Of a stretch of 64,000 bases of DNA, positions 3,958 to 57,512 are shown piece by piece. The position numbers were made by a program, and so were the translations under genes. The notes under the pieces are model-generated. The model saw only the letters and a list, made by a program, of their open reading frames with translations. It had not been told where the DNA came from and made no database searches. Positions within the stretch are counted from its first letter, which is position 1; each line of letters opens with the position of its first letter. Location of the stretch: the IMG/VR virus record IMGVR_UViG_3300030419_006839, positions 40,852-104,851 of that record; one strand, written 5' to 3'. The DNA comes from a virus.

Positions 3958-6900
3958 ATGGCTAAGATACCAGACAAGGAAATTAGAGAGAATTGGAGTC
4001 TTCCTAATTTGTATGAAGATGAAAATGGAAATCAAAAAACTAAACTAAAAGAACAGGAATCCATCTCTCACTACAACTTCAATCCTTATGGTGCTAAAGT
4101 TAATTATGACACTGGTGAAATAAATTTAGCATTTGATAATAATGCATCATCTTTATTTAATGATTTTATTCAAGCAAACTATATATTTTCACCAAGATAC
4201 CAAAGTCCTCACTCTTTAGTTAAAGATTTATTTAAAAATATAAATTCTCCAATAGTTAAAGATGAGAATTTTGAAGAAATAATTCTAAAAAACAAAGAAA
4301 AAACATGGACAAGTTTGGGTAAGGTTTCATATTTAGATAAAAACACTTATCCAAATTGTCTTTTACTTGTAGAAGGTACATTTTCTAATGTAGATAATTC
4401 AAACTCAACTGAAGTAAAAAAACTATATATAGCCTTTGGAGATCAGCTATTTTCTCAAGATTTAATTACAGGTGACTTAAAGTTAGAGTGTAGGGTTTGG
4501 GGTAATATTTATGGTTTAGAAAAAGATACTTATGGAAATGTATTTATAATTTCCAGTTTAAACGATGAGTGTAGAACTAATGTATCAGATGATAACTCAT
4601 TTAATACGGATGATAATACAAACCCTGCTGGATTGGGTATCGTAAACATTTACAAGTGGTGCTTTGATAAAAATAGTTTTCCAAATGTTGAAAATAGATT
4701 AGATTACAATAAAAAACTTAAAAGAATATTAACAACTTATTATAATGGTAGAACTGATTTTGGTAGCTTAAGTGATTTAGGTTTTTTATACAATAACTAT
4801 TCTCCCTATCAAGGAAAGATAGACGAAGATAATTGTAATTTAGCAAAAACCACAGTAGGATTCTTTAAAGACAATGTTATAAATTGTGGTCAATATTTTT
4901 TCCCTTGTCAGTCTTATGAATACTTGCCTAAACAAGTTAGCTATGATGGTGGCCCTACATCTACAAAAATTACAAATACATATGTTGAACTAGAGAAACT
5001 TGATTCAAAAGTCGTGGAAACAAAAATAGGGGGAAAAGAAATTGAACTTAATATATGGAATGCCCTTAAAGCTGCATGGAATGGAGAAGATCCAGAATCA
5101 ATTATAAAAGAAAAAGATTACAAAGAAATTGAAAAAATCATTAAAGAAAACACTAATACAACGAGATTAGAACTACCTAGTATTATTGGTATGCCAAATC
5201 AAGGTTTTTCATGGTTTGAGGATTTTTTGTACATACCCTTCGATAAAGGAAGTGTTTTTGGGTTGATGAGAATACCAACACCACAAGTAATTTTTAGTGA
5301 TTCAGTTTTAGATACCTTAAAACTACCAAAACCCTTCATAAAAGGAAACACTAATTCTTCTATTTCCAATTGTGATGATGATTTTATAAGTGTTTCAGAT
5401 GTTCCAAACTATACATCATATTTTAACATGTTACATACTGGAATTACTTGGTTGTCAAGTAGGGGTTTTGATGGAAAAAACTGTGGGTTATTTTCAAGAA
5501 CAAACCTAGAGGTAATAAATAAAAACTTAAGAGAAGGGGGAGATGGAGCAGGAGATAAATACAGTGATACTTACAGTGATGCAGATAAAAAGACACAAAC
5601 TAAATCTGTAAATGAACATGAAAATACAACCTTGAGTGGTAACAATTTAACTAGATTTTATGGAAATAGATACCATAATAAAAACATGGCAGCAGGTAAG
5701 ATAACTGAATTTTATGGTGATCAATCAAGTAATTCATATAGTGGTAAGATAGTTGAACATTCAAATTTAATCGGTGGTGGTTTCAAACCATCTTCAACAA
5801 AAAACTATTATTCATTTATTATAGATACTGAAAATGTTCCAAAAAGAGGAGAATCTGGTTCAACAGATTTATCTTTAGCACCAACTGGATGGACAGTTCC
5901 AGCCAATATTATTCACATTTCTAAACCTGTTGGAATTAATCCATCCTCAATAAGAAAACCACTAACTCACAAACTTGAAACTTTCATATACGATAGCACA
6001 TTGCAAGAATTGACTAATGAGATGGTTGATGTTTTACTAACATATAATAAATCCACTAGTAGTGTTGTACCTGTAAACTATATACTACAAGCCGAAGATA
6101 GTAGTATAAACACACAAACAAGTAAACCAAACAAATTCGGGGCTAAAACGAAGGAAAGATTTTGGAACATGAGGACTTCAGAAATAACACCTAGTAACGA
6201 CATTCTATCATATGTTAAAAGAGGTAGTGAATCATCAGATCCATTTTTAATTGGTAGTGCTAATGAGTTTTCAACCTCTTGGGGATTAGGTGGTGGTGTT
6301 CAATATGGTAGATCAGATGGTTCTCATTACTACCAAATACACAGGACAATAATTGGTAAAAAAACTAGTACTGATATACATACCAGGACAACGGGAATTA
6401 AACATACTAAGAGGTTTGTATTAAACAATACTAGAAATGGTAATTATGAATATTTTGATAGTAGTGGAACTAAACAAAACAATAGTGAATCAGGTGGAGC
6501 ATTAACCTCTGTATACACAAATAGTGGTAGTGAATTAAATTTTGATAATAGCCAATACAATGGTGCAGAATTCTTTTGTATTAATTCATCCAATAATTCT
6601 GCTGATATTTCTTTAGAAAGGTCAACACCTAGAGAAGTGGATTCAAGCGATAGAAATAACTTAAAACTAAATGATAATCAAATATTTTTTAACTTACCTA
6701 ATCCAATACACTGGGGTGATGTTGGTAGTATTATTATACATAAAAACAGATTATACTTTACTGTATTTGATTATAAATCAACAGAGCCTCATCAAAGTTG
6801 GGAAAATTCCGATAGGGTTGACATGGAGGTTTCTGGAAAACCAGCAGTAGGATATGAATTAGAAGCAGGTATTTATTGTCTAAACATATCAGTAGATTCT

Positions 6901-9900
6901 GCAGATAGTCACGGATCTTCAGGTTTCAGCAAAACTAACAATTGTACAAAATTCACCAATAAAGTTAATGAAACTATAAAGAAATTATCCAATGATGACC
7001 AATATTACAGCAATAATCTAAATCCCATCTTGGAAAACATTCCACACACAACAACAGAAAATCAAGCATCTGGTGGTAGTCAATCTTTAGATTCTGGATC
7101 TGGTTCTAGTAACTATCAAGGAACATCAACAAGTAGTGAACTTAATTATTTTAAACCTGATGAACAATACGATGCGTCTGGTAGTATGCCGATAACTGAA
7201 ATAAATCCAGATTTTACTTCTAGTCCAGTTAATAAAAACCCCAAAGATTTCCCTCCAATACAATTTCTTTTAGATCCTTCAAAAGATTCAAGACAAGTTA
7301 GATTGAAAAGAATTTCACATAGTAGCTATCGTGGAGAGTATGTTGAGAAAATGTCTTTAAATAGAGTTTTTTCCGATGGTGGAAAGAAAAGACGGCAATT
7401 AGAAGTTAGTCAATACTCCTCACCTAGATCTCCATTTGTTTCTGGAGATAAGGTTATATATTTAGCTGGAAATGAATTTTGGAGAGGTAGTTTGTTTAGT
7501 AGTAATGTTAGATTTAATCCATACTCTATGGATGGTAAAATGCTAATATTGGATTGTAAGAATACATCTAAAGAAAACATATTTTTTGGCAAAGCATCTC
7601 CTATAGATGAATTTACAAACTATGTAAATGCTAAAGGAAATAATGATGCCATGAAAGGTTTTTCATCAAACTCAGTAACAGATAGTTCTGGAAATACATA
7701 TGTTGTTTCTGGGAAAGATGCTTTACACCTACTAAGTTTTAGTGATGTACCTAAACCAAAACAAAATAGCTCAGGTAGTTTTAAACGTAAAAATAGTGGA
7801 TATATGTTAACTTTGATTGATGGTAAGTTAGAACTATCAACTCAAGCAAATAGAGATTTCTTATCGAAAACAATAAACTATAATGAAGAATTAATAACTG
7901 ATGGTAATAATTTCTTTAATTTTTCAATATTAAAGTATGGAAACGAACTATCTACAAAAATACCACTAATTGATACTAATAAAGAAAATTACTATGGCAT
8001 TATTTCTAAATTAGCAAGTTTAGTTGATGCTGAATTTGGTATAGAAAATCAAGAACCATACTTTAGAAATAAAGATTCAAATATGCTACTGTCTTCAGAT
8101 TTTGGTACATCATTAACACCAAGAGGTGGGCCATTAGATACAGACAACTCAATACTGAATAAATTCCTATTGGATTCAGAATATACATTTTGGTATGTAA
8201 ATGGTGAAATAGTCTCTGTCTATAATCAAGCATACAATGGATCTTCAACAAATAAGATAGTTGAAAGAGGGTTATTAGGTACAGAAGTAAAAGAACATGG
8301 ACAAAACCAAATAGTTTATAGAATGAAACTATATGCAGATGATAAGAATCTCATAAGTATAAATAACTACAGTAAAGATTATGATAATATATATAATGAA
8401 GTTAGAGTTGATTTTAACAGTAAAGAGGGTTTTCAAGATTCTATTGTTGTCTCTACAAACAATGAAAGTTCATCATATGATCGTACTTTTAATTATTCTG
8501 CTCCATTTATAACTGAAGGTTCTTGGGCTAAGGGAATTGCATATAGGCTTTTAAATAGACTTTCAAAAGAAAAATATTTAATTGACATGTCTATAAGGAT
8601 TAACCCTGAATTAAAAAATGCAGATTTTATAGTAGTTAATTGTGGTGAGTATAATATTAGTAATAAGCTTTTTCAGATAAAATCAGTATCACACAACTTA
8701 ACGGAACATATCACAAATATAAGTGCAATTTCCGTAGAAGAACCCACACTTAGTCTATCGTATTATAATGGTAGTAGTTTTGTTGCATATAACGATGGAA
8801 TAGATGCTGGATCAAATAAAATAGCTGGAAACGATGAGACTTTAATAATTAAACTAACAAATGAAGGAAATTATGATTTAAATATCAGTGATATTTTTAT
8901 TGATGACATAAGTTTTAAAGTTTTTAGATATGTGAATGGGGTAAAGAGTAAGGAAATAGAAAGAAATGATTCTGATTCTGGGTTTAAAGTTGGATCAGAA
9001 AAAGACTTAACCATACCTGTTGGCTCTAGTAAAGAGTTTTATATAAGTTTTATCTTACCACAAGAAAGTAATTTCTTTAGGGAATTAAGTATAGTTTCTA
9101 ATTTAGAAAAAAATCCCATTAGCCACTTCTCTATTTTTGGATCAATTAAATCTATAAGTCTAGATGTAGAAGGTGATTTAAGTTTTGGAAACATAAACAA
9201 TAACCAACCTAAATCAAAAAGAATTGTTGTTAAAAATAAGGGAGTTAATGAAATTAAATTAACCAATCTAGAAATTAAGTCTGGGAAGCAAGGAACAATT
9301 TTAAACAGTTTAGATGGATTTTCTTTCAACAAGATAAATATAAGTAACAATCAATCAACATCAATAAACACATCTAATGTAAACATTACATTAAAAGGAG
9401 AGGATAGTGGTAGTGGAGAAGATTTCACAATAATTGAAGTTGTTTTTGACCCTAGTGAAACTGTTAGGAATGGAAGATATAGAGTGGATAAAACTGGAAT
9501 TGAAGGAAATATAAAATTATTTATAGATGCAGAAACTACTGGTGGTACTAGTACCACATTAGCTTCAAGTTTAAACAGTACATCTCAACAAATAACCCTT
9601 ACAGATTCCAGTGGGTTTGATGTTGGTGATAACATAATGATAGATACAATTGAAATGGAAATAGTAGGTAAAAGTGGAAATACAATTTCAGTGGACTCTA
9701 GAGATAAACACAATGATAGTATACAAACCATACCAAAATCTTACAATTCTGGTACAAGTGTAATTAACCTAAAAAATACAGTTTCTACAAAAAGGATAAA
9801 TTATAGTGGTAAAATAAATAGTATACCAGTAAGTGCTAGAATACATGCCAATAGAATAAAACTATATGGCTTAGACAATTTAGAACTTCCAAAACAAGAT

Positions 9901-12900
9901 GGAAAGTATTTATTAGATAATCAAATCACTAGAAATAGGTTTTCAGCAAAACTAAAAAGTATAAAAAACCAACTAAAAACAAACAATTCAAATGCAAATA
10001 AAATTAAGATAGAAGAAGGAAGAGTTTATATTGGAACAGATAGTGGATACCAAACTGGAACTACTGTTCCTCTTTTTGTTTCAGATAGTTCAAATTTACA
10101 ATACAATCATGATTGGGAATCTAAAACATATAAAGTTAAAGTAAACTTAACAGATAATGATCAGAAAAACTTCAAATTACTATTACATTTAGATAAAGAA
10201 AACAGTGGCAATAGACATATTACTTTAAATAAATATGAAATAAGCAATTCAACAAATACACTTTTAGCTAGACAAAGAAGAAATTTAGAAAATTATACTT
10301 TTACTAATGTAGATGAAGATGGTCATATTGTTCTTAACTATATTTTCGCTCGTACAGATAATGAAAATCTAAACTTAGAAGAAAGACATAATTCTTTATT
10401 TCATCAAGATAGCGACACAACAGCGGTAGTGTCAGGTAAAGAATATGTAATATATCATTTAGGTAGTGGAACAGATGCAGAAAAAGAAACTAGATGGCAA
10501 AATGTCGGATTTGATGGAGTACCTTTTGAAGGAGCATACTTTACTGCAAACACAACAACAACGATGACTGATGACGCTAAAGTAACTGAATCTTTTATAA
10601 ATATATCATTGAATTTACTACATTTAAGTGTAGATACATATGACTCTAAAAACAATTCTCTAACTACGGTTGTTGATGGTTATGCAATAAATCAATGGAG
10701 AAAGGCATTATCAATAGATATTAAAACTGAAACAGTCTTCACTCTTGATAGATTGTCTGCAATGAATGTTGGAGACAAGTTTGCAATAATAACAGAAACT
10801 GAAAATATAGATGGGGATGTTTCAAATTATTCTAAAGAAGGATTTGATTCATCAAACAACAATCAAAAAACAGATGCAAGTATTAAGTCATGGCAATCAG
10901 GTTTACCATTAAGCTATGGAGGTAGTGGTAATGTTAGGTATATTATGGTTAATCTTCAAGACCATAAATTTAAGGCTGGAGAACAATTACTTATATATTC
11001 GTCAAATGGTGGTAAGTTTGATGGTGTTCATGATATACATAGTGTTTCCCCTGATATAATAAATTTGTATGGAGATAGTGCACTAAGTCCTAGTAGTGGT
11101 AATTTAAATGACGTATTGGATACTAATGTTAGAGTTACTAAGGTACATACAATAGATAGGATAATTAATCAAAACTCATTTGTTGTTAAAGATTTAGGTA
11201 GAGAAGATAGTACATCAGAAATAACATTACGAAATACAGTAAACGAACTTAGTACTCCAAATAAAGATTGCAACATTGTCTTATTAAATGACTTTACTAA
11301 ACAGGAAGGAATTATAATAAGAAATGAACCTGATATAATTACTGGTACAGTTGTAGGAGAAATATCAGAATTAGGTGATTATTTTATAAAAATAAGAATA
11401 GATGAAGATGAGGAGCTATTTCCAGGTGGTGTAGACCTAACAGAAGAAAACTGCATAAAGTTTATAGGTGATTCAAATAGTTTGTTTGATGGATATTTTA
11501 AATATCAAACTCCAATACCTATAGACAAAGATACTTTTAAAATTAAACTACCCAAACTATCCTTATTGAATGTGGCGTATTCTACAAGTCAAAAAAAGTA
11601 CTATGCTATCTGTAAAACGACAAAAAAAATAGACACCTTAAAAACTACAGACGGAGATGAAAGTACTAATAGGGAATATAATCCATATGGTCTTAAAAAC
11701 ATAATACCATTTAATGAAGGAGATACGGTTTCGATAGAAGGAACCTCAAACGAAGAATACGATAATATAAAATCAATTAAAATAAATAAAATACATGACG
11801 AAATTGGATTATTAACAGATGGTGTAATGGAATCTTTTGGTGGTAAAAGTGGAGAAAAAACTTTTTATGTTGAACTTGATTTACCACTAGATACGTACAG
11901 TAAAACACAGGCACGTACTCAGATTACACAATTATCTTCAAGTGTGGGCAGTACTTCAGCAACAACTTTCTCTGTTGATGATGCAAGTAACATTAGTCAG
12001 TATGACATTTTATTTTTCTCTTCTAGTATTTTTAATGAAGTTGAAGAAATAGTTAGAGTAACCAATATTAGTAGTAATGAAATTACTGTTGAAAGAGGAA
12101 TTGATGGATCTACAGCAGAAACCCATAATAGTGGTGATAAACTTTTCAAATTTGATAACATAATTAGTAAAGGATTTTTGCAAAAAAAATCTCCACATAA
12201 CGGAACTAAACTTAATTTCGTTTTAGAAGCTAGTAATAAGCAATATGGATTAAAGTTTTCAACCAACACTAGTAAGAATTATGATTCTAATCTTGCAACT
12301 TCTTTTTCAAGTTCTCAAGATACCTTCTCTGATGGTATTGGTATAAAAAGAGCTAAAATACTTAGTAGTGAAAGAGATAATAGCAAAATAAGGATTTGGT
12401 TTGATGTAGATACTTACCCTACAACACAACTACAATCTTCAATCACTAATTCACAAAACAACATTAAAGTAGGAAATACTGACCATATTAGTGAAGGTGA
12501 GATTATAAAAATTGATAATGAAGAAATGAGAGTAACCTCAGTTAGTAGTAATACCCTACTAATGGTTAAAAGAGCAGTAAATAGTACATCAGCAGCAACG
12601 CACCAAACATCCTCAACTGTTTCTAATGTTTTTGATTCTATATTTTCTGTTGGTGAAAATATAATAATTTACGATACAGATAATCAAGATTCTCATGGAA
12701 CTTGGAGTATTAGTGGTACAGATGGTTTCAACTACATTGAAGTAACTCTTGGAACTGGTGATAGTAGTTTTGTAATTAACAGAGGATTTATAGCAACGAC
12801 AAAACAAAATTTAGAATCGTCAAGTATTATTAAGTCATTTGATTCTATCAGTTTACCAAAAAAGACAAGTTCTACTAGTGGTGATAATATATGCAGACCT

Positions 12901-13914
12901 TTTGAAACATTTGAAACTAGCTTAACTAAATCTTTTGGATCTATGAATAAGACAAATTCAAATTTAAAAAATAAATATAGATCAATTTATGATAGTAATA
13001 ATGACAATGAAGTTGATATTTTTGATTTAGTATTGTTTTTTAGTAAGATGAAGGTTACTCCAGAAATCAGTCCATTTGTTTTTAATAGTTTTAGTAATTC
13101 TGATGAAAGTATATTATTTGAAGTTAAAGATAATATAATATACAAAAAATCAGGTCAACTATTAACTGGGATTGAAGATGTGTTAGAAGGAGATGGTGAA
13201 TCAAACATTGTAGTTTCAACAACAGATCCAGAAAACCCAACAATCAGTGTAAGCTCTGTTTTAAAGTCTTATCCTCAAAATCAAAATATATCAATTAGAG
13301 AAGCAGGAACTGATGATTCTAGAGAGGATTTTTTAAATGTAAAATATGATCATGACAATTCAAAAAGAAATATTATAGACTTATCAGGTAGTTTAACGTT
13401 TACTGATGTCGAGATTGGTTCTTCCTACACAAAGAAGTTAGAGTTAACTAATGTTAGTCCAAATATTGATTATGAATTAACTATTTCTACAATTATAAAT
13501 ACTCCATTTTATGATGAAAGTATGATATACGCACTAGATAAAGATGGAAACACTATATCATCTGATGCTATGCGTTTAGATTTTAGTAAAAATAAAATTA
13601 TAATAAGTCCAGATCAGGTAATAGATATACCTATATCTTTAACTACACAAAACACCTTAGAGAAATTAGATGAAGGTGAAAAAGGATTAGAAGTCAGAGG
13701 AACCAACGTAAGAATACCACAAGTATTATTACTAACAAATGAAAAAATAAGACAAATTTTCTCTCCAAATTCTGAAATAGGTATTTCTAATTCATATCAA
13801 ATTAGAAAAGCATACATTAAAATTGAATTTGTTGAATTAAATTCCTCAAATAATTCAAATAGAAATAAGACCTTTATAGTTTTACCAATAAATACTATAC
13901 CAAAAAATAATTAA
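3958..13914 (+). CDS. Giant (3318 aa) tail tip/adhesin-like virion protein
   Basis: S/N/T-rich beta domains; internal repeats 'TQL.SS....I.V.D......I.ID.E.M.V...S.N...V.R....T...H'; Ig-like segments ('LSFGNINNNQPKSKRIVVKNKG', 'LTFTDVEIGSSYTKKLELTN'); dockerin/EF-hand-like DSNNDNEVDIFDLV. Confidence 0.6.
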   Translation: MAKIPDKEIRENWSLPNLYEDENGNQKTKLKEQESISHYNFNPYGAKVNYDTGEINLAFDNNASSLFNDFIQANYIFSPRYQSPHSLVKDLFKNINSPIVKDENFEEIILKNKEKTWTSLGKVSYLDKNTYPNCLLLVEGTFSNVDNSNSTEVKKLYIAFGDQLFSQDLITGDLKLECRVWGNIYGLEKDTYGNVFIISSLNDECRTNVSDDNSFNTDDNTNPAGLGIVNIYKWCFDKNSFPNVENRLDYNKKLKRILTTYYNGRTDFGSLSDLGFLYNNYSPYQGKIDEDNCNLAKTTVGFFKDNVINCGQYFFPCQSYEYLPKQVSYDGGPTSTKITNTYVELEKLDSKVVETKIGGKEIELNIWNALKAAWNGEDPESIIKEKDYKEIEKIIKENTNTTRLELPSIIGMPNQGFSWFEDFLYIPFDKGSVFGLMRIPTPQVIFSDSVLDTLKLPKPFIKGNTNSSISNCDDDFISVSDVPNYTSYFNMLHTGITWLSSRGFDGKNCGLFSRTNLEVINKNLREGGDGAGDKYSDTYSDADKKTQTKSVNEHENTTLSGNNLTRFYGNRYHNKNMAAGKITEFYGDQSSNSYSGKIVEHSNLIGGGFKPSSTKNYYSFIIDTENVPKRGESGSTDLSLAPTGWTVPANIIHISKPVGINPSSIRKPLTHKLETFIYDSTLQELTNEMVDVLLTYNKSTSSVVPVNYILQAEDSSINTQTSKPNKFGAKTKERFWNMRTSEITPSNDILSYVKRGSESSDPFLIGSANEFSTSWGLGGGVQYGRSDGSHYYQIHRTIIGKKTSTDIHTRTTGIKHTKRFVLNNTRNGNYEYFDSSGTKQNNSESGGALTSVYTNSGSELNFDNSQYNGAEFFCINSSNNSADISLERSTPREVDSSDRNNLKLNDNQIFFNLPNPIHWGDVGSIIIHKNRLYFTVFDYKSTEPHQSWENSDRVDMEVSGKPAVGYELEAGIYCLNISVDSADSHGSSGFSKTNNCTKFTNKVNETIKKLSNDDQYYSNNLNPILENIPHTTTENQASGGSQSLDSGSGSSNYQGTSTSSELNYFKPDEQYDASGSMPITEINPDFTSSPVNKNPKDFPPIQFLLDPSKDSRQVRLKRISHSSYRGEYVEKMSLNRVFSDGGKKRRQLEVSQYSSPRSPFVSGDKVIYLAGNEFWRGSLFSSNVRFNPYSMDGKMLILDCKNTSKENIFFGKASPIDEFTNYVNAKGNNDAMKGFSSNSVTDSSGNTYVVSGKDALHLLSFSDVPKPKQNSSGSFKRKNSGYMLTLIDGKLELSTQANRDFLSKTINYNEELITDGNNFFNFSILKYGNELSTKIPLIDTNKENYYGIISKLASLVDAEFGIENQEPYFRNKDSNMLLSSDFGTSLTPRGGPLDTDNSILNKFLLDSEYTFWYVNGEIVSVYNQAYNGSSTNKIVERGLLGTEVKEHGQNQIVYRMKLYADDKNLISINNYSKDYDNIYNEVRVDFNSKEGFQDSIVVSTNNESSSYDRTFNYSAPFITEGSWAKGIAYRLLNRLSKEKYLIDMSIRINPELKNADFIVVNCGEYNISNKLFQIKSVSHNLTEHITNISAISVEEPTLSLSYYNGSSFVAYNDGIDAGSNKIAGNDETLIIKLTNEGNYDLNISDIFIDDISFKVFRYVNGVKSKEIERNDSDSGFKVGSEKDLTIPVGSSKEFYISFILPQESNFFRELSIVSNLEKNPISHFSIFGSIKSISLDVEGDLSFGNINNNQPKSKRIVVKNKGVNEIKLTNLEIKSGKQGTILNSLDGFSFNKINISNNQSTSINTSNVNITLKGEDSGSGEDFTIIEVVFDPSETVRNGRYRVDKTGIEGNIKLFIDAETTGGTSTTLASSLNSTSQQITLTDSSGFDVGDNIMIDTIEMEIVGKSGNTISVDSRDKHNDSIQTIPKSYNSGTSVINLKNTVSTKRINYSGKINSIPVSARIHANRIKLYGLDNLELPKQDGKYLLDNQITRNRFSAKLKSIKNQLKTNNSNANKIKIEEGRVYIGTDSGYQTGTTVPLFVSDSSNLQYNHDWESKTYKVKVNLTDNDQKNFKLLLHLDKENSGNRHITLNKYEISNSTNTLLARQRRNLENYTFTNVDEDGHIVLNYIFARTDNENLNLEERHNSLFHQDSDTTAVVSGKEYVIYHLGSGTDAEKETRWQNVGFDGVPFEGAYFTANTTTTMTDDAKVTESFINISLNLLHLSVDTYDSKNNSLTTVVDGYAINQWRKALSIDIKTETVFTLDRLSAMNVGDKFAIITETENIDGDVSNYSKEGFDSSNNNQKTDASIKSWQSGLPLSYGGSGNVRYIMVNLQDHKFKAGEQLLIYSSNGGKFDGVHDIHSVSPDIINLYGDSALSPSSGNLNDVLDTNVRVTKVHTIDRIINQNSFVVKDLGREDSTSEITLRNTVNELSTPNKDCNIVLLNDFTKQEGIIIRNEPDIITGTVVGEISELGDYFIKIRIDEDEELFPGGVDLTEENCIKFIGDSNSLFDGYFKYQTPIPIDKDTFKIKLPKLSLLNVAYSTSQKKYYAICKTTKKIDTLKTTDGDESTNREYNPYGLKNIIPFNEGDTVSIEGTSNEEYDNIKSIKINKIHDEIGLLTDGVMESFGGKSGEKTFYVELDLPLDTYSKTQARTQITQLSSSVGSTSATTFSVDDASNISQYDILFFSSSIFNEVEEIVRVTNISSNEITVERGIDGSTAETHNSGDKLFKFDNIISKGFLQKKSPHNGTKLNFVLEASNKQYGLKFSTNTSKNYDSNLATSFSSSQDTFSDGIGIKRAKILSSERDNSKIRIWFDVDTYPTTQLQSSITNSQNNIKVGNTDHISEGEIIKIDNEEMRVTSVSSNTLLMVKRAVNSTSAATHQTSSTVSNVFDSIFSVGENIIIYDTDNQDSHGTWSISGTDGFNYIEVTLGTGDSSFVINRGFIATTKQNLESSSIIKSFDSISLPKKTSSTSGDNICRPFETFETSLTKSFGSMNKTNSNLKNKYRSIYDSNNDNEVDIFDLVLFFSKMKVTPEISPFVFNSFSNSDESILFEVKDNIIYKKSGQLLTGIEDVLEGDGESNIVVSTTDPENPTISVSSVLKSYPQNQNISIREAGTDDSREDFLNVKYDHDNSKRNIIDLSGSLTFTDVEIGSSYTKKLELTNVSPNIDYELTISTIINTPFYDESMIYALDKDGNTISSDAMRLDFSKNKIIISPDQVIDIPISLTTQNTLEKLDEGEKGLEVRGTNVRIPQVLLLTNEKIRQIFSPNSEIGISNSYQIRKAYIKIEFVELNSSNNSNRNKTFIVLPINTIPKNN

Positions 13915-13937
13915 AGTTAGTGTGAGGTTGTCGATAT
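13912..13937 (+). promoter_or_regulatory. Class I (sigma28-like) promoter upstream of dnaE
   Basis: TAAAGTTagtgtgaggttGTCGATAT; same elements and spacing as the other copies. Confidence 0.7.
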
Positions 13938-14001: not shown

Positions 14002-17000
14002 ATGGGATACGTTCCATTACATGTACATTCACACTTTTCACTACTTGATGGTTTAGAATCACCAAAACAACTAATACAGAGGGCTAAAGATGTTGGTATA
14101 GATGCATTAGCCTTAACTGATCATGGTACTATGGGTGGTCTTATAGATTTTTATTTTAGCTGTAAAGAAGAAAACATAAAGCCAATTATGGGTTCTGAAT
14201 TTTATTTTGCAGAAGATAGATTAATTAAAGAAAAAACTGCTCATGGAAATTCTAACTATCATCAAACAATTCTTGCAAAAAACATAGAAGGTTGGAAAAA
14301 CTTAATCACTCTGACTACAGAAGCAGCATCAACTGGTTTTTATAGAAACCCTAGAATAGATTTTTCCTTATTAGAACAACATAATGATGGATTAATAGTT
14401 GGATCTGGTTGTGCTGCTAGTATAATAAGTAAATGTATTGAATCTGATGACTTTTCTAAAGTCAAATGGCTATTTAACTTCTTTAAAAAGAATTTTGATG
14501 GAAGATTTTTTGCTGAATTAACCTCCATAGAAAATATATATGAAAATGGAGACTTAGCCGTAGATCAGAAAAAGATAAATAAATACCTAATTCAATATGC
14601 TAAAGAGTTTGGTATTCCTTTCACAATAATGTCAGATGCCCACTACGCTGAAAAAGAGCATTATGATGAACACGATCTTCTACTTGCAGTTCAGACTAAG
14701 AAAAAACTGAAAGATAAAGATAGATTTAGATTTGGAACTAAAGAAGTTTGGCTAAAAAGTGAAGATGATATGTGGGATTATTGGCATAGAGAAGGTAAGG
14801 ATCATATATCAGAAGATGATTTTGCTACAGCACTAGAAAATACTGTTAAAATAGCAGAAATGACTTCTATTGATTTAGAAGAATATTATAAATCATATCG
14901 TATGCCTAAACTAGATGTTAAAGATGCAAGAGAAGCTCTCTTTAATCGTGCTTTAAACAATAAAGAAAGAACTATGTTAATAAACAGGTTGTCTGACTCA
15001 GAACAATCTAAATATGTTTCTAGGTTAAATCGTGAATTAAATTTAATAGTAGATCAAGGATTTGCATCTTATTTCATGATGACTGCGGATTTAACTGACC
15101 ATATGCGTGAGAATAAGATAATGAAAGGTTTAGCTAGAGGTTCCGCAGGAGGCTCTCTTTTGGCGTATATGCTTGGCATTACCGATATTGACCCTATCAC
15201 ACACAACCTATCATTTGAACGCTTCATGAACGAAGATAAAGCGTCTATGCCCGATATAGATATAGACATAGATGATGAAAAACGACAAGAAATCTTAGAC
15301 TATTTTATAGGTAAATATGGAACAGACAACGTTTCTCAAATAGGAACTAGAATAACAATGCAATCTAAGTTAGCTAGTAAAGATGTTGGTAGAACTTTAG
15401 GTATTTCTTTCGATAAGTTAAATGATTTAAGTGATGATTTGGAAGTCTTATCTACAGTTAACAACTTCAAGGGAACAAAGGAGGAAATAAACAACATTAT
15501 TTCAGGTTTGAATGAACAATTAATCAGTTCAAATCCATCTCAGAATAGTAAGTTAACTAAGAAATTAGAATCTTGGAAAAAAATTAAAAATATTTCTGAA
15601 AAACACCCACAATGGCTACCTATGTCATCTAGAGTGTCTGGAAAACCAAAAGCAATAGGTAAACATGCTGCAGGTATTGTTGTGGCAGATGACTCATTAA
15701 AGAAAATATTACCACTACAACATGCTAAGAATGAAACATTGGTGACTGAGTGGTCTGATGGCCTTTCAAGAAAAGAATTATCTGATGTTGTAAAGGTATT
15801 AAAGTTTGATTTATTGGGGCTTTCTAATTTAGGTATAATTCAGAACACTATTGACCTTATTAGACAGAGACATAATGAAACAAAAAGATTAGATTTAAAT
15901 CTTTCTGACCAAAACATACTAAATTCAATCGTTTTAGATGATCCGTATGTTTTTGACAATTGTTTACCTAATAAATTAATGGGAGTTTTTCAATTTGACA
16001 CATATGCTGCAGAAAGAGTGCTTAATCTTATAACTCCTGAGAATATTATTGAACTTTGTGCATTAAATGCCATGAATAGACCTGCTGCTTTACAGGCAAA
16101 TGTTCCATTTATGTACGCACAGAGAAAAACTGGAAAAACAAAAATAGAATATTCCCATCCATTAATGGAAGAAATATTAAAGGAAACCTATGGATTAATA
16201 ATATATCAAGAGCAAGTCATGGAGATTGCCAATAAGATAGGAGGATTAACTCCAGCAGAAACAGATAAGTTTAGAAAGGTTCTAGTTAAGGTAACTGAAT
16301 CTAATAAAGAAAAAGAAGATAAAGAAAGGATAAGTTTAATTGATAAATTTCAGGTTGGTGCATTAGAGAAAGGAATGAGTCCTGATGACATAGTTTCTTT
16401 ATCAGAAAAGTTAATTTATTTTTCAGGATATGGGTTTAATAAATCTCATAGTAGATCTTATGCCTTATTAGCATATTACACTATGTATTTAAAAACTTAT
16501 TTTTATCCAGAATTTTTAACGGCATATTTAAATAAAAGACCAGAGAATTTAGATAGAGCTATAAGAGAAGCTGGATTCGATATGTTTTTACCAGTAGATG
16601 TGAATCAATCTAATAATAGTTTTATTTTAGATGAAAGTGGTAGAATAAGAGTAGGTTTTTCAGCAATAAAAGGTTTAGGTGCAGTTGCAGTAAAGGAAAT
16701 AGTAGAAAAAAGACCTTTTATGGACTTAGATGATTTAAAAAATAAGGTTGAAAAAAGAAAGGTAAATAAGACTAGAATTTCTGCGTTAATAAAGAGTGGT
16801 GCTTTAACTTCTTTGAAGGTGAAAACCAACCTAGAGTCTGAGTTACAGGTTTTAGGAATACCTCTTTGGTCAATTAAAAAACAACTTTTCTTGATAAAAA
16901 GATTAAAAAATGATCTTAGATTACCTGCTAGAGGTAGTCAGGTTTTAAACAATGAGGATATAGACTACGTTGAAGATGGAACTTCTGTAATTTCTTTAGG

Positions 17001-17214
17001 ATTTATAAATAAGATTGAAAAGAAATTTAAATCTGGAGGATATTTGGCAGAGTTATATGATGGAACTTCATATGTTTCCCTAGTTAAGTATTCTTTAAAT
17101 CAAAATGATACATACCCTAGATTGGGTCAAATAGTATTGATTGAAGGGGAAAAGAAGACATATGCTAAACACAACTCTACTCAATTAATGGTCAATAGGG
17201 TAAAGGGGTTTTAA
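14002..17214 (+). CDS. dnaE: DNA polymerase III alpha subunit
   Basis: PHP motifs LHVHSHFSLLDG and ALTDHG; RGSAGGSL; catalytic PDIDID; KFDLLGL; YGFNKSH. Confidence 0.97.
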   Translation: MGYVPLHVHSHFSLLDGLESPKQLIQRAKDVGIDALALTDHGTMGGLIDFYFSCKEENIKPIMGSEFYFAEDRLIKEKTAHGNSNYHQTILAKNIEGWKNLITLTTEAASTGFYRNPRIDFSLLEQHNDGLIVGSGCAASIISKCIESDDFSKVKWLFNFFKKNFDGRFFAELTSIENIYENGDLAVDQKKINKYLIQYAKEFGIPFTIMSDAHYAEKEHYDEHDLLLAVQTKKKLKDKDRFRFGTKEVWLKSEDDMWDYWHREGKDHISEDDFATALENTVKIAEMTSIDLEEYYKSYRMPKLDVKDAREALFNRALNNKERTMLINRLSDSEQSKYVSRLNRELNLIVDQGFASYFMMTADLTDHMRENKIMKGLARGSAGGSLLAYMLGITDIDPITHNLSFERFMNEDKASMPDIDIDIDDEKRQEILDYFIGKYGTDNVSQIGTRITMQSKLASKDVGRTLGISFDKLNDLSDDLEVLSTVNNFKGTKEEINNIISGLNEQLISSNPSQNSKLTKKLESWKKIKNISEKHPQWLPMSSRVSGKPKAIGKHAAGIVVADDSLKKILPLQHAKNETLVTEWSDGLSRKELSDVVKVLKFDLLGLSNLGIIQNTIDLIRQRHNETKRLDLNLSDQNILNSIVLDDPYVFDNCLPNKLMGVFQFDTYAAERVLNLITPENIIELCALNAMNRPAALQANVPFMYAQRKTGKTKIEYSHPLMEEILKETYGLIIYQEQVMEIANKIGGLTPAETDKFRKVLVKVTESNKEKEDKERISLIDKFQVGALEKGMSPDDIVSLSEKLIYFSGYGFNKSHSRSYALLAYYTMYLKTYFYPEFLTAYLNKRPENLDRAIREAGFDMFLPVDVNQSNNSFILDESGRIRVGFSAIKGLGAVAVKEIVEKRPFMDLDDLKNKVEKRKVNKTRISALIKSGALTSLKVKTNLESELQVLGIPLWSIKKQLFLIKRLKNDLRLPARGSQVLNNEDIDYVEDGTSVISLGFINKIEKKFKSGGYLAELYDGTSYVSLVKYSLNQNDTYPRLGQIVLIEGEKKTYAKHNSTQLMVNRVKGF

Positions 17215-20370: not shown

Positions 20371-20396
20371 TAAAGTTAAATCAAAATAGTCGATAT
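20371..20396 (+). promoter_or_regulatory. Class I (sigma28-like) promoter
   Basis: TAAAGTTaaatcaaaataGTCGATAT upstream of ORF 20437. Confidence 0.7.
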
Positions 20397-27654: not shown

Positions 27655-28401
27655 GAAAAGTATAGTTTGATATGAATTTAGATTATTTTAAAGATAAAAT
27701 ATTTCAGTATTGTGATTTAAACCATGATAATGAAAATTTTTCAGGCTGGAAAGTTTGTAAAGAAAATATTAAATTGTGGGAAGAAATTTCTATGATGTTT
27801 TACGGCATGTGGATTGCAGAAAATTCAAGTAATGCTGAAATAGTAGAATTTTCTCAAACGGAGTGGTAGGTATGATTTTATTAGTTCTTGTTTGCTATGG
27901 ATGTTTTTCTGTAATTGTAAGTAATTTAGTTGAGAAGATTCCATATATTCCATATAATTTTCATGAATTTAAAAATGATTTAGACATTGGAGGAGATTGT
28001 GATAGTTGTTAGAACGGTTGAAATAGTTTCAGTCGTATTTTTATTTTTTATTTCCATTTTATTGTTGTTTCTCCTGATAGGTTGTGAGATGAGAGAGAAT
28101 GCGGTGATTAGAGAGCAGACCGACATTTTTACTGATGAAATACGAGAAAAGAATAAGGATATGCAATCCTTGTCTAATCAGTTAAAAGTTGCAGAGGAGA
28201 ATATTAAGACGTTGAAGGCAAAGTTACTTTGTCGTGAAGAACTGATAGATGAAGCAATGGAACAGGCTAAGAGAGATACTCTTAAAGAAAATCCAGTGTT
28301 GATCTCGATCAATAAAAATCCACAAAAATCTAATAAGGTACAGGCAGAACGTAATCAATAATGTACCAAAAAAAAGATAATTAAAAGGGGGAAGCAAAGT
28401 A

Positions 28402-28761: not shown

Positions 28762-29346
28762 TATATGATTAAGAAAGATGGAAAATTAATATCTATATTG
28801 GAAATAAATTTTCGTGAAAAACTTAGGGTTGAGAAATTAGAAAAAGATTTTGAAGAATTAAAAATTAAGTTCAAAAAAGTAAAAGAAGAGAACAAGAAGT
28901 TAAAAAAACTTTTAAAAAAGAAATGAAAGAAATATATTTATTAAAAGAAATTTTTGAAGAACTGAATGATATGATGCATATCAAAGGAGGAGGTGAAACA
29001 CCAACGAAAGAGTGGGAAGATAAGTATAGATTCCTTCAAAGAAGGGTAGACTACTTTAAAAAAAAATTATTAAAATAAGAAATAGAGAAAACAAAGAACA
29101 ATTAGAAAAGATTAGAGAAATACAACGAAAGGAATATGTTAAAGGAGAAATAAACCTATACCAAAAAAACGAAAGGAAAAGATTAAAATATGAGGTCTTG
29201 AAAAGTAAAAAAACAAGTAGATAATAATGAGAATTATACCAATTTCAGGAACGGTTGGAAGTTCTTTCCATCACTATTTTGAATATTATAGGAGGAATAT
29301 ATTAGATAACTATCTAAATGAATCACTAATAGATCGGAGGTATAAA

Positions 29347-29535
29347 ATGGATGTTAGTACAAATAGATCAGATAATAATACACCTGATTATTTAAGATAT
29401 ATTCAAGAAGCAAAACAAGCGGAAAGAAAACAAGAAACTAGAAATTTAATGAACGAAGAAAAAGAAAACAAAAATAAAAGCGTAGGCAATATAGTTCAAA
29501 CAACTATTGGAACTATCATTGACATCTATGCATAA
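29347..29535 (+). CDS. Small protein with YjfB-like (motility-associated) C-terminus
   Basis: RBS GGAGG before ATG 29347; ends IGTIIDIYA; directly upstream of the flagellin. Confidence 0.45.
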   Translation: MDVSTNRSDNNTPDYLRYIQEAKQAERKQETRNLMNEEKENKNKSVGNIVQTTIGTIIDIYA

Positions 29536-29554: not shown

Positions 29555-30439
29555 ATGTTAAATAGTGTAGCAAATAGAGCATATCAAAACTATAAAAAGA
29601 CAACTGCAGAAATTCAAGAAACTATGCAATTATTGGCAGATGGCAAACCTAAACTTAATCCAACAGATCAATCTAGAGTTAATAAAATGAACTCTAGAAT
29701 TAGGACATTAAAAACCGCAAATACAAATGTAAAAGAATCTTTAAACCTTTTGAGATCTGCAGATAGTGGAATTAGTTCTATTAGAAGTGTGGTTTCTAAA
29801 CTAAGAGGTATTGCTCAAGAATCTCAGTCAGAAGAAATTAGTGCCGAAGAACGTGCTGATTTACAGGTAGAGTATGATACTTTATATAAAGAAATAGATT
29901 TCATATTAGACAATACAGAATATGATGGAGTTAAACTACTTGATGGTACGTTTGCAACTAAGAATGTAGTTATTGATTCTGATGATTCAGTTCAAATAGA
30001 TATTGATGATATGACTGAAGGTTCATTACGTATTGGTGCTTATACAAAAACATTAGAAATTGGCGATCCTGAGATTGGTTTGGATAATGGTCAAGGTGGA
30101 GTTTATGCCCCAGGGGATTCTATAAGTATTGTCAAGTCTTCCGTAGACACTGTTGAAAAGGCTCAAGACGCAGTTGCACGTTTAGATTTTGCTTTGGGTA
30201 AGTTAGATGAGGAATCAGTAAAACTAAATTCAAAGGCTCAGAGATTTGAATTTACTACAAGTCATTTAACAAGTATGGTAGGAGTATTGGAAGAATCGGT
30301 TGATACCATCGAAGATTTTGATGAGGCTAGAGAAATGAGTCGTTTGGCACAAGCTCAAATAAGACAACAATCAGCCATTGCCATGATGGTACAGGCACAA
30401 CAATTATCTCAAACTATTCACCAATTACTTAACCAGTAA
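29555..30439 (+). CDS. fliC: Flagellin (divergent)
   Basis: Flagellin_N features (ANTNVKESLNLLRSADSGI; ERADLQVEYDTLYKEIDFILDNTEYDGVKLLDG) and Flagellin_C (DFDEAREMSRLAQAQIRQQSAIAMMVQAQQLSQTIHQLL); RBS AGGAG before ATG 29555. Confidence 0.92.
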   Translation: MLNSVANRAYQNYKKTTAEIQETMQLLADGKPKLNPTDQSRVNKMNSRIRTLKTANTNVKESLNLLRSADSGISSIRSVVSKLRGIAQESQSEEISAEERADLQVEYDTLYKEIDFILDNTEYDGVKLLDGTFATKNVVIDSDDSVQIDIDDMTEGSLRIGAYTKTLEIGDPEIGLDNGQGGVYAPGDSISIVKSSVDTVEKAQDAVARLDFALGKLDEESVKLNSKAQRFEFTTSHLTSMVGVLEESVDTIEDFDEAREMSRLAQAQIRQQSAIAMMVQAQQLSQTIHQLLNQ

Positions 30440-30757
30440 ATGATTACATATAGAATAGAAGACATACCTGACGATAGAGGATGGTTAACCACTACATGGG
30501 GAAAAGCTGTAGGCTCTGAACCATGTAGTTTTATTTGTCATCACTGTGCTATAATTTGGAGGGCAAACTTCCCTAGAAATACAATTCTTGGAGTAAGGAA
30601 TAGTAACGTTTGGGAAAGAAATCCATGTCCAAGTTGTATAAAAAATAAACTAAAGAAATATGAGGGATTAGATGAAGTGGGTAATTAGTTTTTCAATTGG
30701 TTTTATAATTGCAATTAGTCTTCTTTACGGCATTGCACAATTTTGGACTTGGTAAAA

Positions 30758-30787
30758 AAAAAGGATGGGAATTAACCCATCCTTTTT
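30758..30787. terminator. Bidirectional intrinsic terminator
   Basis: AAAAAGGATGGG-aattaa-CCCATCCTTTTT between convergent genes. Confidence 0.85.
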
Positions 30788-30790
30788 CAT

Positions 30791-31207
30791 TTAATTTATT
30801 TTTATTGATTTTGGTTTCTCTGATTCTGGTATTTTATTTTCTAGTTTAATATTTAAAATACCATCAACAATTCTTGCAGATGTTACTAAGATAGTATTTG
30901 ATAATGTTAGAGACTTCTCAAACTTTCTATTTGCAATACCTCTATGTAGATATTTAGATTTAACATCTGACTGAATTTTTTCTCCAATAATCTTTAACTC
31001 ATTAGATTCTCCTGGGTGATGTGTTACTGATATTTCATCCTTAGAGAATCCTGCTACAGCTATTTCCACTATATATGTATTATCATCCTCCTGTATTATA
31101 TTATATGGAGGATATTTTTGTTTAGAGTTTTGGAATTCATCTAGTTGATTAAATAAACCTTTAAACCCTACAAAGAATGGATCGTATTTTGTTACTAATG
31201 TTGTCAT
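30791..31207 (-). CDS. Small heat shock protein Hsp20 (IbpA-like)
   Basis: YPPYNI, EIAVAGF, YLHRGIANRKF, DGILNI. Confidence 0.95.
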   Translation of the reverse strand: MTTLVTKYDPFFVGFKGLFNQLDEFQNSKQKYPPYNIIQEDDNTYIVEIAVAGFSKDEISVTHHPGESNELKIIGEKIQSDVKSKYLHRGIANRKFEKSLTLSNTILVTSARIVDGILNIKLENKIPESEKPKSIKIN

Positions 31208-31391: not shown

Positions 31392-31464
31392 TATAACGTC
31401 ACTTTCCCTAAATTATTTACTAAAAAAATAAATCAGTAAAAAGTTTTAACCTATTAACGTTATA
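31392..31464. promoter_or_regulatory. Back-to-back class II promoters (hsp20 on -, thyX operon on +)
   Basis: AGTAAA-N17-CGTTATA at 31421-31392 (-) and 31435-31464 (+). Confidence 0.7.
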
Positions 31465-31489: not shown

Positions 31490-31813
31490 TTGAAAACACA
31501 TATAACTAGATCACACCTTGAAGAATATGAAATCAGTTTAGTTAATAAGATAAAAAGTCTATACAAACAAGTATCTTCTGATGATTCTGGTAAAACTGAA
31601 ATACAAGTAGTACTAGATAGAGGTGGGTGTATAGTTTGGATGGATATTATTTGCTCATCTGGGCATAAGCATTTAGATGAATATGCAAAAAAAATAATAG
31701 AAGATGCTTGTCCGTTTAAAGACTTCCCTGAAAATTCATTGCATCATTATTTAGACATTATTATAACAATTATTTTTAAACATAAGGAGAATCATGAACG
31801 TAACGTTAGTTGA
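31490..31813 (+). CDS. TonB C-terminal domain-like protein
   Basis: 'VVLDRGG...SSGHKHLDEYAKKIIEDACPFKDFP'. Confidence 0.6.
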   Translation: MKTHITRSHLEEYEISLVNKIKSLYKQVSSDDSGKTEIQVVLDRGGCIVWMDIICSSGHKHLDEYAKKIIEDACPFKDFPENSLHHYLDIIITIIFKHKENHERNVS

Positions 31814-32474
31814 TAAAATGGGTAATGACCTTAGTGTTGTAAATGCTGCTAGGGTTTCATTCGGTAAAAAAAAGGAAAAATTTGATGATAAGGATAAGAA
31901 ACTTATTGGTTACCTTGCTAGGCATAATCATTGGACTCCTTTCGGCCATGTTTCTTTACAGTTTCACATCGTTGCTCCTGTCTTTGTTGCTAGGCAATTA
32001 GTTAAACATCAAGTTGGCTTGGTTTGGAATGAAATTAGTAGGAGGTATGTTGATAGTGACCCTGAGTATTATACTCCAGAAAAATGGAGACTTAAAGCAA
32101 GTAATAAAAAGCAGGGAAGTTCTGATGAATTTTATTACAATGAAGTAGTAACAAAAGATGCTTTTGATCCTAGTATACCTAGTCCTGGAGGTAATCCTTA
32201 TGAAATGCCTTCATATAAATACATTTGTGAACAAGCTAGGATTGCATATAACTCTATGATAAATATTGGTATTTGTCCAGAACAAGCAAGAATGATATTA
32301 CCTCAAAGTATGATGACTGAGTGGTATTGGTCGGGTACTTTAATGGCATTTGCTAGAGTTTGTAATCTAAGATGTAAACCAGATACGCAGTTGGAGACTC
32401 AATGGATAGCAGATAAAATAGATAAGTTAGCAGTTGAAGTTGCCCCTGTTAGTTGGGAACAATTAAGAAAATGA
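31794..32474 (+). CDS. thyX: Flavin-dependent thymidylate synthase
   Basis: VNAARVSF, HWTPF, ARQLVKHQ, NEISRRY, EQARMILP. Confidence 0.97.
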   Translation: MNVTLVDKMGNDLSVVNAARVSFGKKKEKFDDKDKKLIGYLARHNHWTPFGHVSLQFHIVAPVFVARQLVKHQVGLVWNEISRRYVDSDPEYYTPEKWRLKASNKKQGSSDEFYYNEVVTKDAFDPSIPSPGGNPYEMPSYKYICEQARIAYNSMINIGICPEQARMILPQSMMTEWYWSGTLMAFARVCNLRCKPDTQLETQWIADKIDKLAVEVAPVSWEQLRK

Positions 32475-44018: not shown

Positions 44019-44228
44019 TTATCCATAAATATCTAACTTTGCTCCTAAATTTGGGTTAGTAGATTTTGCCTTTTTTCTTTCATGTTTTGCTAAATCTAAA
44101 GTTGCTTCTATCCTTATTTCTCTTTTTGCATGTTGGATTTCATTGTATAATTGAAATTGTTCCAACGTACTAAAGTTTGCTATCCTACTTTGTCTCAAGA
44201 ATCTTGGATTCATGAATGTAGTTATCAT
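44019..44228 (-). CDS. Small protein with YjfB-like C-terminus
   Basis: Ends NPNLGAKLDIYG. Confidence 0.4.
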   Translation of the reverse strand: MITTFMNPRFLRQSRIANFSTLEQFQLYNEIQHAKREIRIEATLDLAKHERKKAKSTNPNLGAKLDIYG

Positions 44229-56513: not shown

Positions 56514-57512
56514 TTAATAAAGTTCACTAAGATAGCCAAAATAACCACCGTCCTTTGGTTTAGCATTTGTTTTTATTGTATATATAACACCAGCAATAGC
56601 TTGAATTAAATCATGACTACCACCTGGAGGGTGGTCATATTTGTTTCCAACTCTTTCTAGTTGTCTTAACTCTTTGTGTGGTAGGTTAACTTCACCTTCA
56701 GGTGTTTTAACATTTAATGGATACATATTTATTCTTTTTTCATAAATAGCTTTAATCAACTCATCAAAAGGTTCAGTTGTTCTATCTATAGATAAGGTAT
56801 CGGCATCCATTCCTACAGCTTTCATGTTTTGTATAAAGTCTGCTGATTGGTAACCATCTAAAGTTACCCTATGTATATTATATCCTCTTTTGATTACATC
56901 AAAAATTATTTGTCTAATTGCTATTAATTGAACTGGACTTTCTTTATAACCTTTAAATGATGCTAGTAAATCAAAGGAGACTATTGGTTCTTTTATTTTT
57001 CTCACTCTATTTTGTGCATCTCTTTGTTCTTTTTCTACCCAATCTTCTGCATGACCTACAGCCAAACCTAGTCGATCTTGAGTTAATCCTATATCAACGT
57101 GGCAATATCTTCGTATGTGATCTTGACAAATAAAATCATCTCTAAAAACGGTATTAACTACTTCACCATTTGGTTGTAGGAACGGATTTTTTATAATTGG
57201 ATGTTTAAAATCTTTTAGTTTTTCAAAAGATTTTTCAATAAACTCTGAGTGTTCAATAGCAGGAGCGACTGCATCAATTGGATTAGCACCAAAATCTCTC
57301 GTAGCTAATGCAGGGTTTCTTAGAAACTCATCCATATAACTTTCTATTGTTTGGGTATCTCTCATTCTCCAAGTAGGTGCTTGTATTGCAAGAGATTTGT
57401 CAAATTTAAACATTCTGACATCATAATCGTACTTTTCTTTGACAAAATCTGGATTTAAAGAGGTTCTACTACTATAGTCTTGCTCTAAAGAGAAAATTGA
57501 TTCATCACTCAT
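56514..57512 (-). CDS. Terminase large subunit, C-terminal nuclease part
   Basis: APTW, HVDIGLTQDRLGLAVGH, VTLDGYQS, YDHPPGGSHDL; close to the portal gene. Confidence 0.85.
   Translation of the reverse strand: MSDESIFSLEQDYSSRTSLNPDFVKEKYDYDVRMFKFDKSLAIQAPTWRMRDTQTIESYMDEFLRNPALATRDFGANPIDAVAPAIEHSEFIEKSFEKLKDFKHPIIKNPFLQPNGEVVNTVFRDDFICQDHIRRYCHVDIGLTQDRLGLAVGHAEDWVEKEQRDAQNRVRKIKEPIVSFDLLASFKGYKESPVQLIAIRQIIFDVIKRGYNIHRVTLDGYQSADFIQNMKAVGMDADTLSIDRTTEPFDELIKAIYEKRINMYPLNVKTPEGEVNLPHKELRQLERVGNKYDHPPGGSHDLIQAIAGVIYTIKTNAKPKDGGYFGYLSELY

Follow-up and report, generated by a model that had tools for sequence, protein, structure and literature searches.

The gene F0, which lies at positions 29555-30439 of the 64,000-nucleotide stretch of viral DNA analysed here (the window, which covers positions 40852-104851 in a 104,851-base IMG/VR virus record, itself about 73% complete), codes for a genuine flagellin homologue, intact and with a long evolution inside phage genomes behind it. 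F0 and a small upstream gene, F1, together form a conserved module of two genes. The evidence on the role of F0 leans to the decoy or circuit-manipulation type, with the host flagellar programme as the putative target.

An intact gene for a minimal flagellin

29555-30439, plus strand: F0, flagellin-like gene, 294 aa, minimal D0-D1 flagellin fold, member of the derived, motif-deleted subclade

An earlier note on this DNA had read the interval as an open reading frame of 294 residues with the helices of Flagellin_N and Flagellin_C, and it was right on both counts. The frame runs uninterrupted through 294 codons with zero stops, and its ATG follows the Shine-Dalgarno sequence GGAG by 8 nt; a longer form from a TTG at 29507 is not needed, since the homologues share the Met start of F0. 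Residues 3-133 match Flagellin_N (Pfam PF00669, 53.8 bits against a cut-off of 26.6) and residues 210-292 match Flagellin_C (PF00700, 49 bits against 23). Moreover, about 25 NCBIfam flagellin models match F0 at 70-88 bits, none of them near its curated cut-off (330-630 bits; the best match reaches 88.5 bits against 347).

The AlphaFold2 model, computed from 20 family members (pLDDT 77), is that of a minimal flagellin, with long N- and C-terminal helices (2-29, 36-90, 97-120, and 200-293) and a small beta region, and it has the four-helix D0-D1 architecture and the beta-hairpin of filament subunits. The top Foldseek matches of this model are all flagellar filament subunits, with TM scores of 0.73-0.77 to solved filaments; they include Leptospira FlaB (9lry; TMq 0.73, TMt 0.77, E 4e-13) and subunits of Kurthia, Pseudomonas, and Vibrio. 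Likewise, the profile of the F0 family finds only flagellins among PDB sequences, with Legionella 6b5b (122 bits) and Vibrio FlaB (118 bits) at the top. An assignment as FlgL (hook-associated protein 3) was rejected, as the score with TIGR02550 is 23.3 bits where 127.2 would be required, with a match in the N-terminal part only, and the PDB profile matches are restricted to flagellins.

Departure from the canonical flagellins

The anomalies that had been claimed for F0, namely the missing INTN start and an altered SSG segment, hold up when it is aligned with 42 canonical flagellins: the N of the INTN start is gone from F0, as are the pairs R-I and D-D from SG.RIN.A.DDAAG, and another residue takes the place of the G in DDAAG. 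The phage flagellin lineage consists of two subclades, a basal one (P0131 type) in which this motif is intact, and a derived one, including F0, in which it is deleted. Throughout the derived, F1-associated subclade, the ND0-ND1 segment L.SG.RIN.A.DDAAG departs from the canonical form in the same way (R-I and D-D deleted, final G replaced), and the G of LGA.QNR, 100% conserved in canonical flagellins, is absent. The basal proteins, which are 287 aa long and begin MIQGLQ, retain the canonical ND0-ND1 spacing and residues (SGSRIP.FSDD; SG.RI....DD), and their genes have no small gene upstream. Flagellin_N scores are 42-54 bits in the derived subclade versus 84.8 bits in the basal one, and out of 63 columns that are at least 80% conserved among the 42 canonical flagellins, the derived subclade keeps 32 and the basal subclade 36. 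The C-terminal D0 of the F0 lineage is nearly invariant.

A virus-only lineage

Searches of 5.8 billion proteins recover 163 relatives of F0, 276-315 aa long and with 40-91% identity, nearly all on marine metagenome contigs. An exhaustive search with F0 among 1.84 billion cluster representatives gives only 6 clusters at E<=1e-30; beyond a sharp gap the canonical flagellins start, at 118 bits or less and 34% identity to F0, and the nearest of them are about 30-34% identical even in D0-D1. A scan of viral contigs with the single F0 sequence returned none, and alignment-based scans of IMG/VR did find loci, 24 plus 11 of the basal branch (35 altogether). The isolate-phage collection holds no close relative of F0, and the lineage is absent from the sequenced cyanomyophages and pelagimyophages there; the matches in that collection are Listeria and Bacillus prophage flagellins (24-27%) and a partial match to a gut metagenome phage (31%).

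A quick maximum-likelihood analysis of 63 rows, with the canonical-flagellin rows assigned by motif alone, separates all 22 phage rows from the rest by a branch of length 1.28 (SH-aLRT 99) and nests F0 among them, which places it in a long-branched clade made of phage proteins only. The claim that F0 is phage-encoded, divergent, and not a host fragment is thus borne out by the viral record, the phage neighbours, and the occurrence of the whole family on viral contigs.

Among 185,579 species-representative genomes, two carry the lineage, in both cases on MAG contigs of 6.7-8.5 kb with the same phage neighbours as the viral loci, and no other flagellin is found in those MAGs. The two contigs, L026 (NZCQ01000013.1) and L027 (PBYE01000017.1), were binned as 'Pacearchaeota' and 'Chromatiales', show a T4-like gene order (hsp20, F9, F12, F1, F0, gp33, gp59, gp32), and have the appearance of phage contigs that were mis-binned into cellular MAGs; L027 and the IMG/VR locus L016 agree in length and in match coordinates. 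Chimeric assembly most likely accounts for two further sequences, P0019 and P0020, each of which joins an F0-like C-terminal half in frame to a PanC-like or a SecA fragment on a contig of 1-1.8 kb.

Purifying selection and integrity

Pairwise dN/dS among the T4-like flagellin copies is 0.04-0.18 over dS values of 0.08-1.6 (Nei-Gojobori), which indicates strong purifying selection and contradicts the pseudogene-like decay that the earlier note had named as a possible refutation. Pooled by region, dN/dS is 0.10 in the N-terminal D0, 0.14 in the linker, 0.09 in the N-terminal D1, 0.19 in the hairpin and central part, 0.13 in the C-terminal D1, and 0.05 in the C-terminal D0; every region is constrained, the C-terminal D0 most of all, and the central region of the phage flagellins is not hypervariable. 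The other refutation foreseen, a chimeric insert, is unlikely, as the same or a near-identical protein is present on more than 13 contigs (NCBI, IMG, Logan, ENA, and Tara) and the GC content near F0 (0.30-0.32) matches that of the record.

Gene neighbourhood and the partner gene F1

29227-29535, plus strand: long form of F1, 102 aa, with a conserved core of 62 aa at 29347-29535
30440-30688, plus strand: Cys-rich ORF of 82 aa (CxxC...CPSC), beginning one base past the F0 stop, without a family match
30758-30787, plus strand: strong hairpin resembling an intrinsic terminator (12 pairs and a T run), which ends the long plus-strand block and faces hsp20
30791-31207, minus strand: Hsp20, convergent, flanking the flagellin unit; equals family F19 of the T4-like relatives
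31490-31813, plus strand: TonB_C-like ORF of 107 aa, flanking the flagellin unit
31794-32474: ThyX, near F0
44019-44228, minus strand: second F1 paralogue, 69 aa, in a minus-strand early region dense in sigma-28-type promoters

The Cys-rich ORF probably closes the same transcription unit as F0. Elsewhere, the window encodes a DnaE-type Pol III alpha polymerase (14002-17214), an exonuclease, a dNMP kinase, a DNA ligase, a portal, a GH108 endolysin, and a terminase. No other flagellar structural gene lies near F0, as had been noted before, and none was found in the record; nor was FliS found in the 104.9-kb record or in five T4-like fragments.

The IMG/VR relatives are mostly marine T4-like myoviruses in which the flagellin gene stands directly upstream of gp33 (late-transcription coactivator), gp59 (helicase loader), and gp32, past which come genes for the baseplate hub and the tail tube; the gp32 of these phages shares about 50% identity with cyanomyophage gp32 and likewise with pelagimyophage gp32. 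The backbone of the window phage is different (DnaE, another portal), so the flagellin gene has moved between unrelated phages. In both backbones its setting is non-structural: its neighbours are ThyX, hsp20, and dNMP kinase in the window phage, as against gp33-gp59-gp32 in the T4-like genomes.

F1 precedes the F0-type gene in 25 of the 27 derived-subclade loci, where it encodes proteins of 62-71 aa with the pattern DYY.VYQEVQ.AKQA.R...HEREKH...GS.LDV.A, and the N-terminal extension of the long form is conserved as protein sequence in a homologue of 73% identity. The precomputed domains of 95 F1 homologues include no Pfam domain, and the ESM Atlas neighbours of F1 are 100% viral clusters, with weak leads to DUF3879 and DUF6033. 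YjfB_motility (PF14070) matches the F1 paralogue over the C-terminal 17 positions only (11.3 bits, E 0.04) and 3 of 40 members of the F1 family weakly (E 0.1-10), which does not establish F1 as a YjfB protein. The F1 family is an orphan known only from viruses.

Two other features of the window were recorded. The motif AGTAAA-N17-CGTTAT occurs 6 times against 0.18 expected, including a back-to-back pair between Hsp20 and the TonB_C-like ORF (31393-31421 on the minus strand and 31435-31463 on the plus strand), and an ORF of 3318 aa upstream of dnaE (3958-13914, plus strand) has no Pfam family at E<=0.001.

Sigma-28-type promoters and a phage FlgM domain

13912-13936, plus strand: second upstream sigma-28-type promoter, preceding dnaE
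20371-20395, plus strand: sigma-28-type promoter nearest upstream of F0, TAAAGTT-N11-GTCGATA
57509-57868, minus strand: IF2_N-FlgM fusion, 119 aa, with the sigma-28-binding C-terminal part of FlgM, between the ORFs that match terminase

The window contains 16 exact TAAAGTT-N10-12-GTCGATA sites, where 0 are expected and none occurred in 100 shuffles. These sites match the E. coli sigma-28 consensus TAAAGTTT-n11-GCCGATAA (PMC2859248), and we infer that the sigma-28 of the host uses them. Most of them stand ahead of minus-strand early genes, and the plus-strand sites are at 13912 (before dnaE), 20371, and 34452. Since a single, weak terminator-like site (28014-28036) intervenes between the promoter at 20371 and the terminator at 30758-30787, F1-F0 is placed downstream of this promoter, and F1, F0, and the Cys-rich ORF probably end a non-structural transcription block driven by sigma-28. 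No dedicated promoter for the F1-F0 unit was recognised in the window; a sigma-70-like match at 29198-29225 was rejected as the F1 promoter because it ends 1 nt before the long-form ATG and cannot serve that start. No sigma-70 r2 or r4 domain was found in the record.

The FlgM part of the IF2_N-FlgM fusion scores 30.9-31.7 bits against a cut-off of 25. The terminase large subunit is matched by two minus-strand ORFs, 56514-57512 and 58231-59025, between which lie the fusion gene and an ORF of 120 aa, so that the terminase is split or interrupted.

Basal-subclade genes carry a perfect sigma-28 promoter about 35 nt ahead of the ATG, CTAAAGTTTT-N-G(C/A)CGATAT, followed by a conserved leader; across five distinct upstream regions both promoter boxes are kept and the spacer varies, and each basal-subclade record has exactly one sigma-28-type site, at the flagellin gene.

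A candidate role in the flagellar circuit

We tentatively favour, with rather less than even confidence, the reading of F0 as a flagellin mimic that acts on late flagellar export and on the FliS/FlgM/sigma-28 circuit of the host. The lean towards a decoy or circuit role comes from the loss of the canonical motif, the retention of only half of the conserved positions, and the long stem branch, together with the non-structural, sigma-28-driven block and the FlgM domain in the same genome. FliS binds D1 and the C-terminal D0 of flagellin, and the docking of flagellin on FlhA is the work of FliS alone (PMC6070490); in addition, Salmonella FliS suppresses the secretion of FlgM and protects FlgM (reviewed in PMC8306008). 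F0 would be made in the infected cell, where its C-terminal D0 helix, which is nearly invariant and corresponds to the part of flagellins that binds FliS, would engage the host chaperone and the export gate for late substrates. Titration of FliS or occupation of the export pathway would then shift the FlgM/sigma-28 balance, given the restraint that FliS puts on FlgM secretion in Salmonella, and it is on this balance that the early transcription of the window phage appears to depend. Later, the phage IF2_N-FlgM protein, in which IF2_N stands in place of the N-terminal part of FlgM, might turn sigma-28 off. F0 would accordingly serve as a regulator or decoy of the flagellar circuit and not as a normal filament subunit. 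Reliance on sigma-28-type promoters is not confined to the window phage, as a T4-like relative of the F1 subclade (the L018 record, G001:C1:25758-38331) has 10 same-strand TAAAGTTT-N11-GTCGATA sites over about 12.6 kb of small early-type genes. However, the link to sigma-28 is not universal in the lineage, because most T4-like loci of the F1 subclade have no sigma-28-type promoter within 10 kb and no FlgM was found in five T4-like fragments, these being only 22-34% complete. The relation between FliS and FlgM is known from Salmonella and Yersinia, and it may fail in the host of the window phage; in addition, a pure FliS decoy needs the C-terminal D0 only, yet the whole of D0-D1 is constrained, which fits an exported or polymerising protein.

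The last point bears on the main rival role, possible though somewhat unlikely, in which F0 would be exported by the flagellar type III system of the host and added onto the growing host filament. There it could replace or cap the host flagellin, blocking flagellum-binding phages or the trapping of progeny on debris, or it could sustain filament growth and swimming after host gene shut-off, just as cyanophage psbA sustains photosynthesis. The full D0-D1 with both termini is under purifying selection, the fold matches that of filament subunits, and the perfect class-3-type sigma-28 promoter of the basal subclade would have the protein made when the export gate takes filament-type substrates; a precedent exists in Enterobacter, where a prophage flagellin, FliC-P, replaces the host flagellin and forms filaments (PMC13418256). 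Against a place in the filament stand the low identity to canonical flagellins even in D0-D1, the long stem branch, and, in the derived subclade, the deletion of the most conserved flagellin segment with changes at half of the conserved positions. The export signal of Salmonella flagellin is said to comprise residues 26-47, and the deleted ND0-ND1 segment presumably overlaps this region. Furthermore, flagellar filaments grow at the tip only, and a lytic infection would recoat little of an existing filament, while the central region, with an omega of 0.19, is not hypervariable, as a surface under pressure from phages or predators would be.

A wider form of the circuit reading, which we regard as speculative and distinctly unlikely, holds that at least two unrelated marine phage backbones run partly on the host flagellar sigma factor, with the flagellin mimic as an 'on' lever and the phage FlgM-domain protein as an 'off' lever. 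With FliS soaked up or late export occupied, host FlgM would be expelled or degraded and sigma-28 kept free for phage promoters; the phage FlgM-domain protein, its FlgM N-terminal part replaced by IF2_N, may be non-exported and would act in the opposite direction, and F1 would adapt or hold the flagellin mimic. Reliance on sigma-28-type promoters is not confined to the window phage, as a T4-like relative of the F1 subclade (the L018 record, G001:C1:25758-38331) has 10 same-strand TAAAGTTT-N11-GTCGATA sites over about 12.6 kb of small early-type genes. However, the link to sigma-28 is not universal in the lineage, because most T4-like loci of the F1 subclade have no sigma-28-type promoter within 10 kb and no FlgM was found in five T4-like fragments, these being only 22-34% complete.

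It is quite improbable that F0 belongs to the virion or to another structure built by the phage, with the flagellin fold used as a fibre, whisker, decoration, or cytoplasmic polymer and F1 as an assembly partner. In favour of such a role, the family is confined to phages, is strongly conserved, and comes with a small partner protein that is itself phage-only, and the lineage occurs in two unrelated phage backbones; nevertheless, the gene is never in a structural module and has replication or nucleotide-metabolism neighbours in both backbones, the promoter of the basal subclade is of the sigma-28 and not of the T4 late type, and a fold search of viral structures in BFVD gave nothing meaningful (best E 2.8e-3, TM 0.53). 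Lastly, the view of F0 as non-functional, be it a piece of host DNA, a product of chimeric assembly, or a pseudogene in decay, can practically be set aside: P0019 and P0020 prove that chimeric assemblies of an F0-type gene occur, but F0 has an intact frame and a good ribosome-binding site, its protein recurs in several independent assemblies at the GC content of the record, and F1-F0 synteny is kept over 25 loci under the low dN/dS given above.

Relation to known systems

The phage flagellin genes documented so far belong to temperate enterobacterial phages that swap the filament protein of their host (PMC13418256), and the literature searches gave no report of the marine family described here. 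The closest precedent, FliC-P, is the prophage flagellin of FRphi, a temperate Enterobacter phage that carries TldR (Nat Microbiol 2026, PMC13418256). Like F0, it is a flagellin homologue in a phage genome, and it interferes with the host flagellar programme, as is proposed for F0. In contrast, FliC-P is canonical, with a D0-D1 highly similar to that of the host and large outer domains, and builds filaments in the lysogen, whereas F0 is a minimal D0-D1 protein, about 30% identical to canonical flagellins, without SG.RIN..DDAAG, in large, apparently lytic marine phages. The partners are also different, namely an RNA-guided repressor of host fliC (TldR) for FliC-P and a 62-102-aa orphan, F1, for F0. 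A TldR-FliC-P module at the F0 locus was considered and rejected: the flanking ORFs, of 102 and 82 aa, have no Pfam family and none is TldR-sized, and the gene set is that of a large phage with a DnaE-type polymerase.

With bacterial flagellins F0 shares both Pfam domains, the helical D0-D1 fold with its beta-hairpin, and the C-terminal D0 consensus ..Q.A...M.QAQQ......LL.., and its best matches among solved flagellins are Legionella FlaA (6b5b), Vibrio cholerae FlaA-D, and Leptospira FlaB. It differs from them in the deleted ND0-ND1 linker, in 31 of the 63 conserved positions, in missing all NCBIfam cut-offs, in having no fliS, fliD, or flaG among its neighbours, and in belonging to a virus-only lineage. 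Short flagellin homologues that are dispensable for motility and have other roles are described for Campylobacter (FlaC, PMC4863622) and for Vibrio (flagellin-homologous proteins, PMC6692518); these are encoded by cells and leave them through the flagellum as secreted proteins, and their sequences are not close to F0.

The present case differs from these: a deep lineage of flagellins confined to viruses is widespread among uncultured marine T4-like phages and has also entered an unrelated large phage, and a derived branch of it has shed the hallmarks of a filament subunit and is nonetheless under strong selection, in genomes with sigma-28 promoters and FlgM. If F0 is indeed a flagellin mimic, phages would control a secretion-coupled transcription checkpoint, and the lineage would offer a natural set of flagellins in which chaperone and export binding is uncoupled from polymerisation; if the mimic and the phage FlgM-domain protein do work as opposed levers, this would be a viral take-over of that checkpoint by copies of its own parts.

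The lineage would also mark its hosts as bacteria with an active sigma-28 regulon. Four of the T4-like relatives carry permuted two-piece tmRNA genes (L035:340-618, L040:7075-7354, L039:7294-7481, and L002:7956-8225), which score 80-108 bits with the Rfam model tmRNA_permuted; two of them exceed the alpha_tmRNA cut-off of 50 bits as well (63-64 bits), and the tags predicted by ARAGORN from the T4-like tmRNA are GNDYELQMAA and GEYNQLPMAA. These genes hint at Alphaproteobacteria as hosts of the T4-like relatives.
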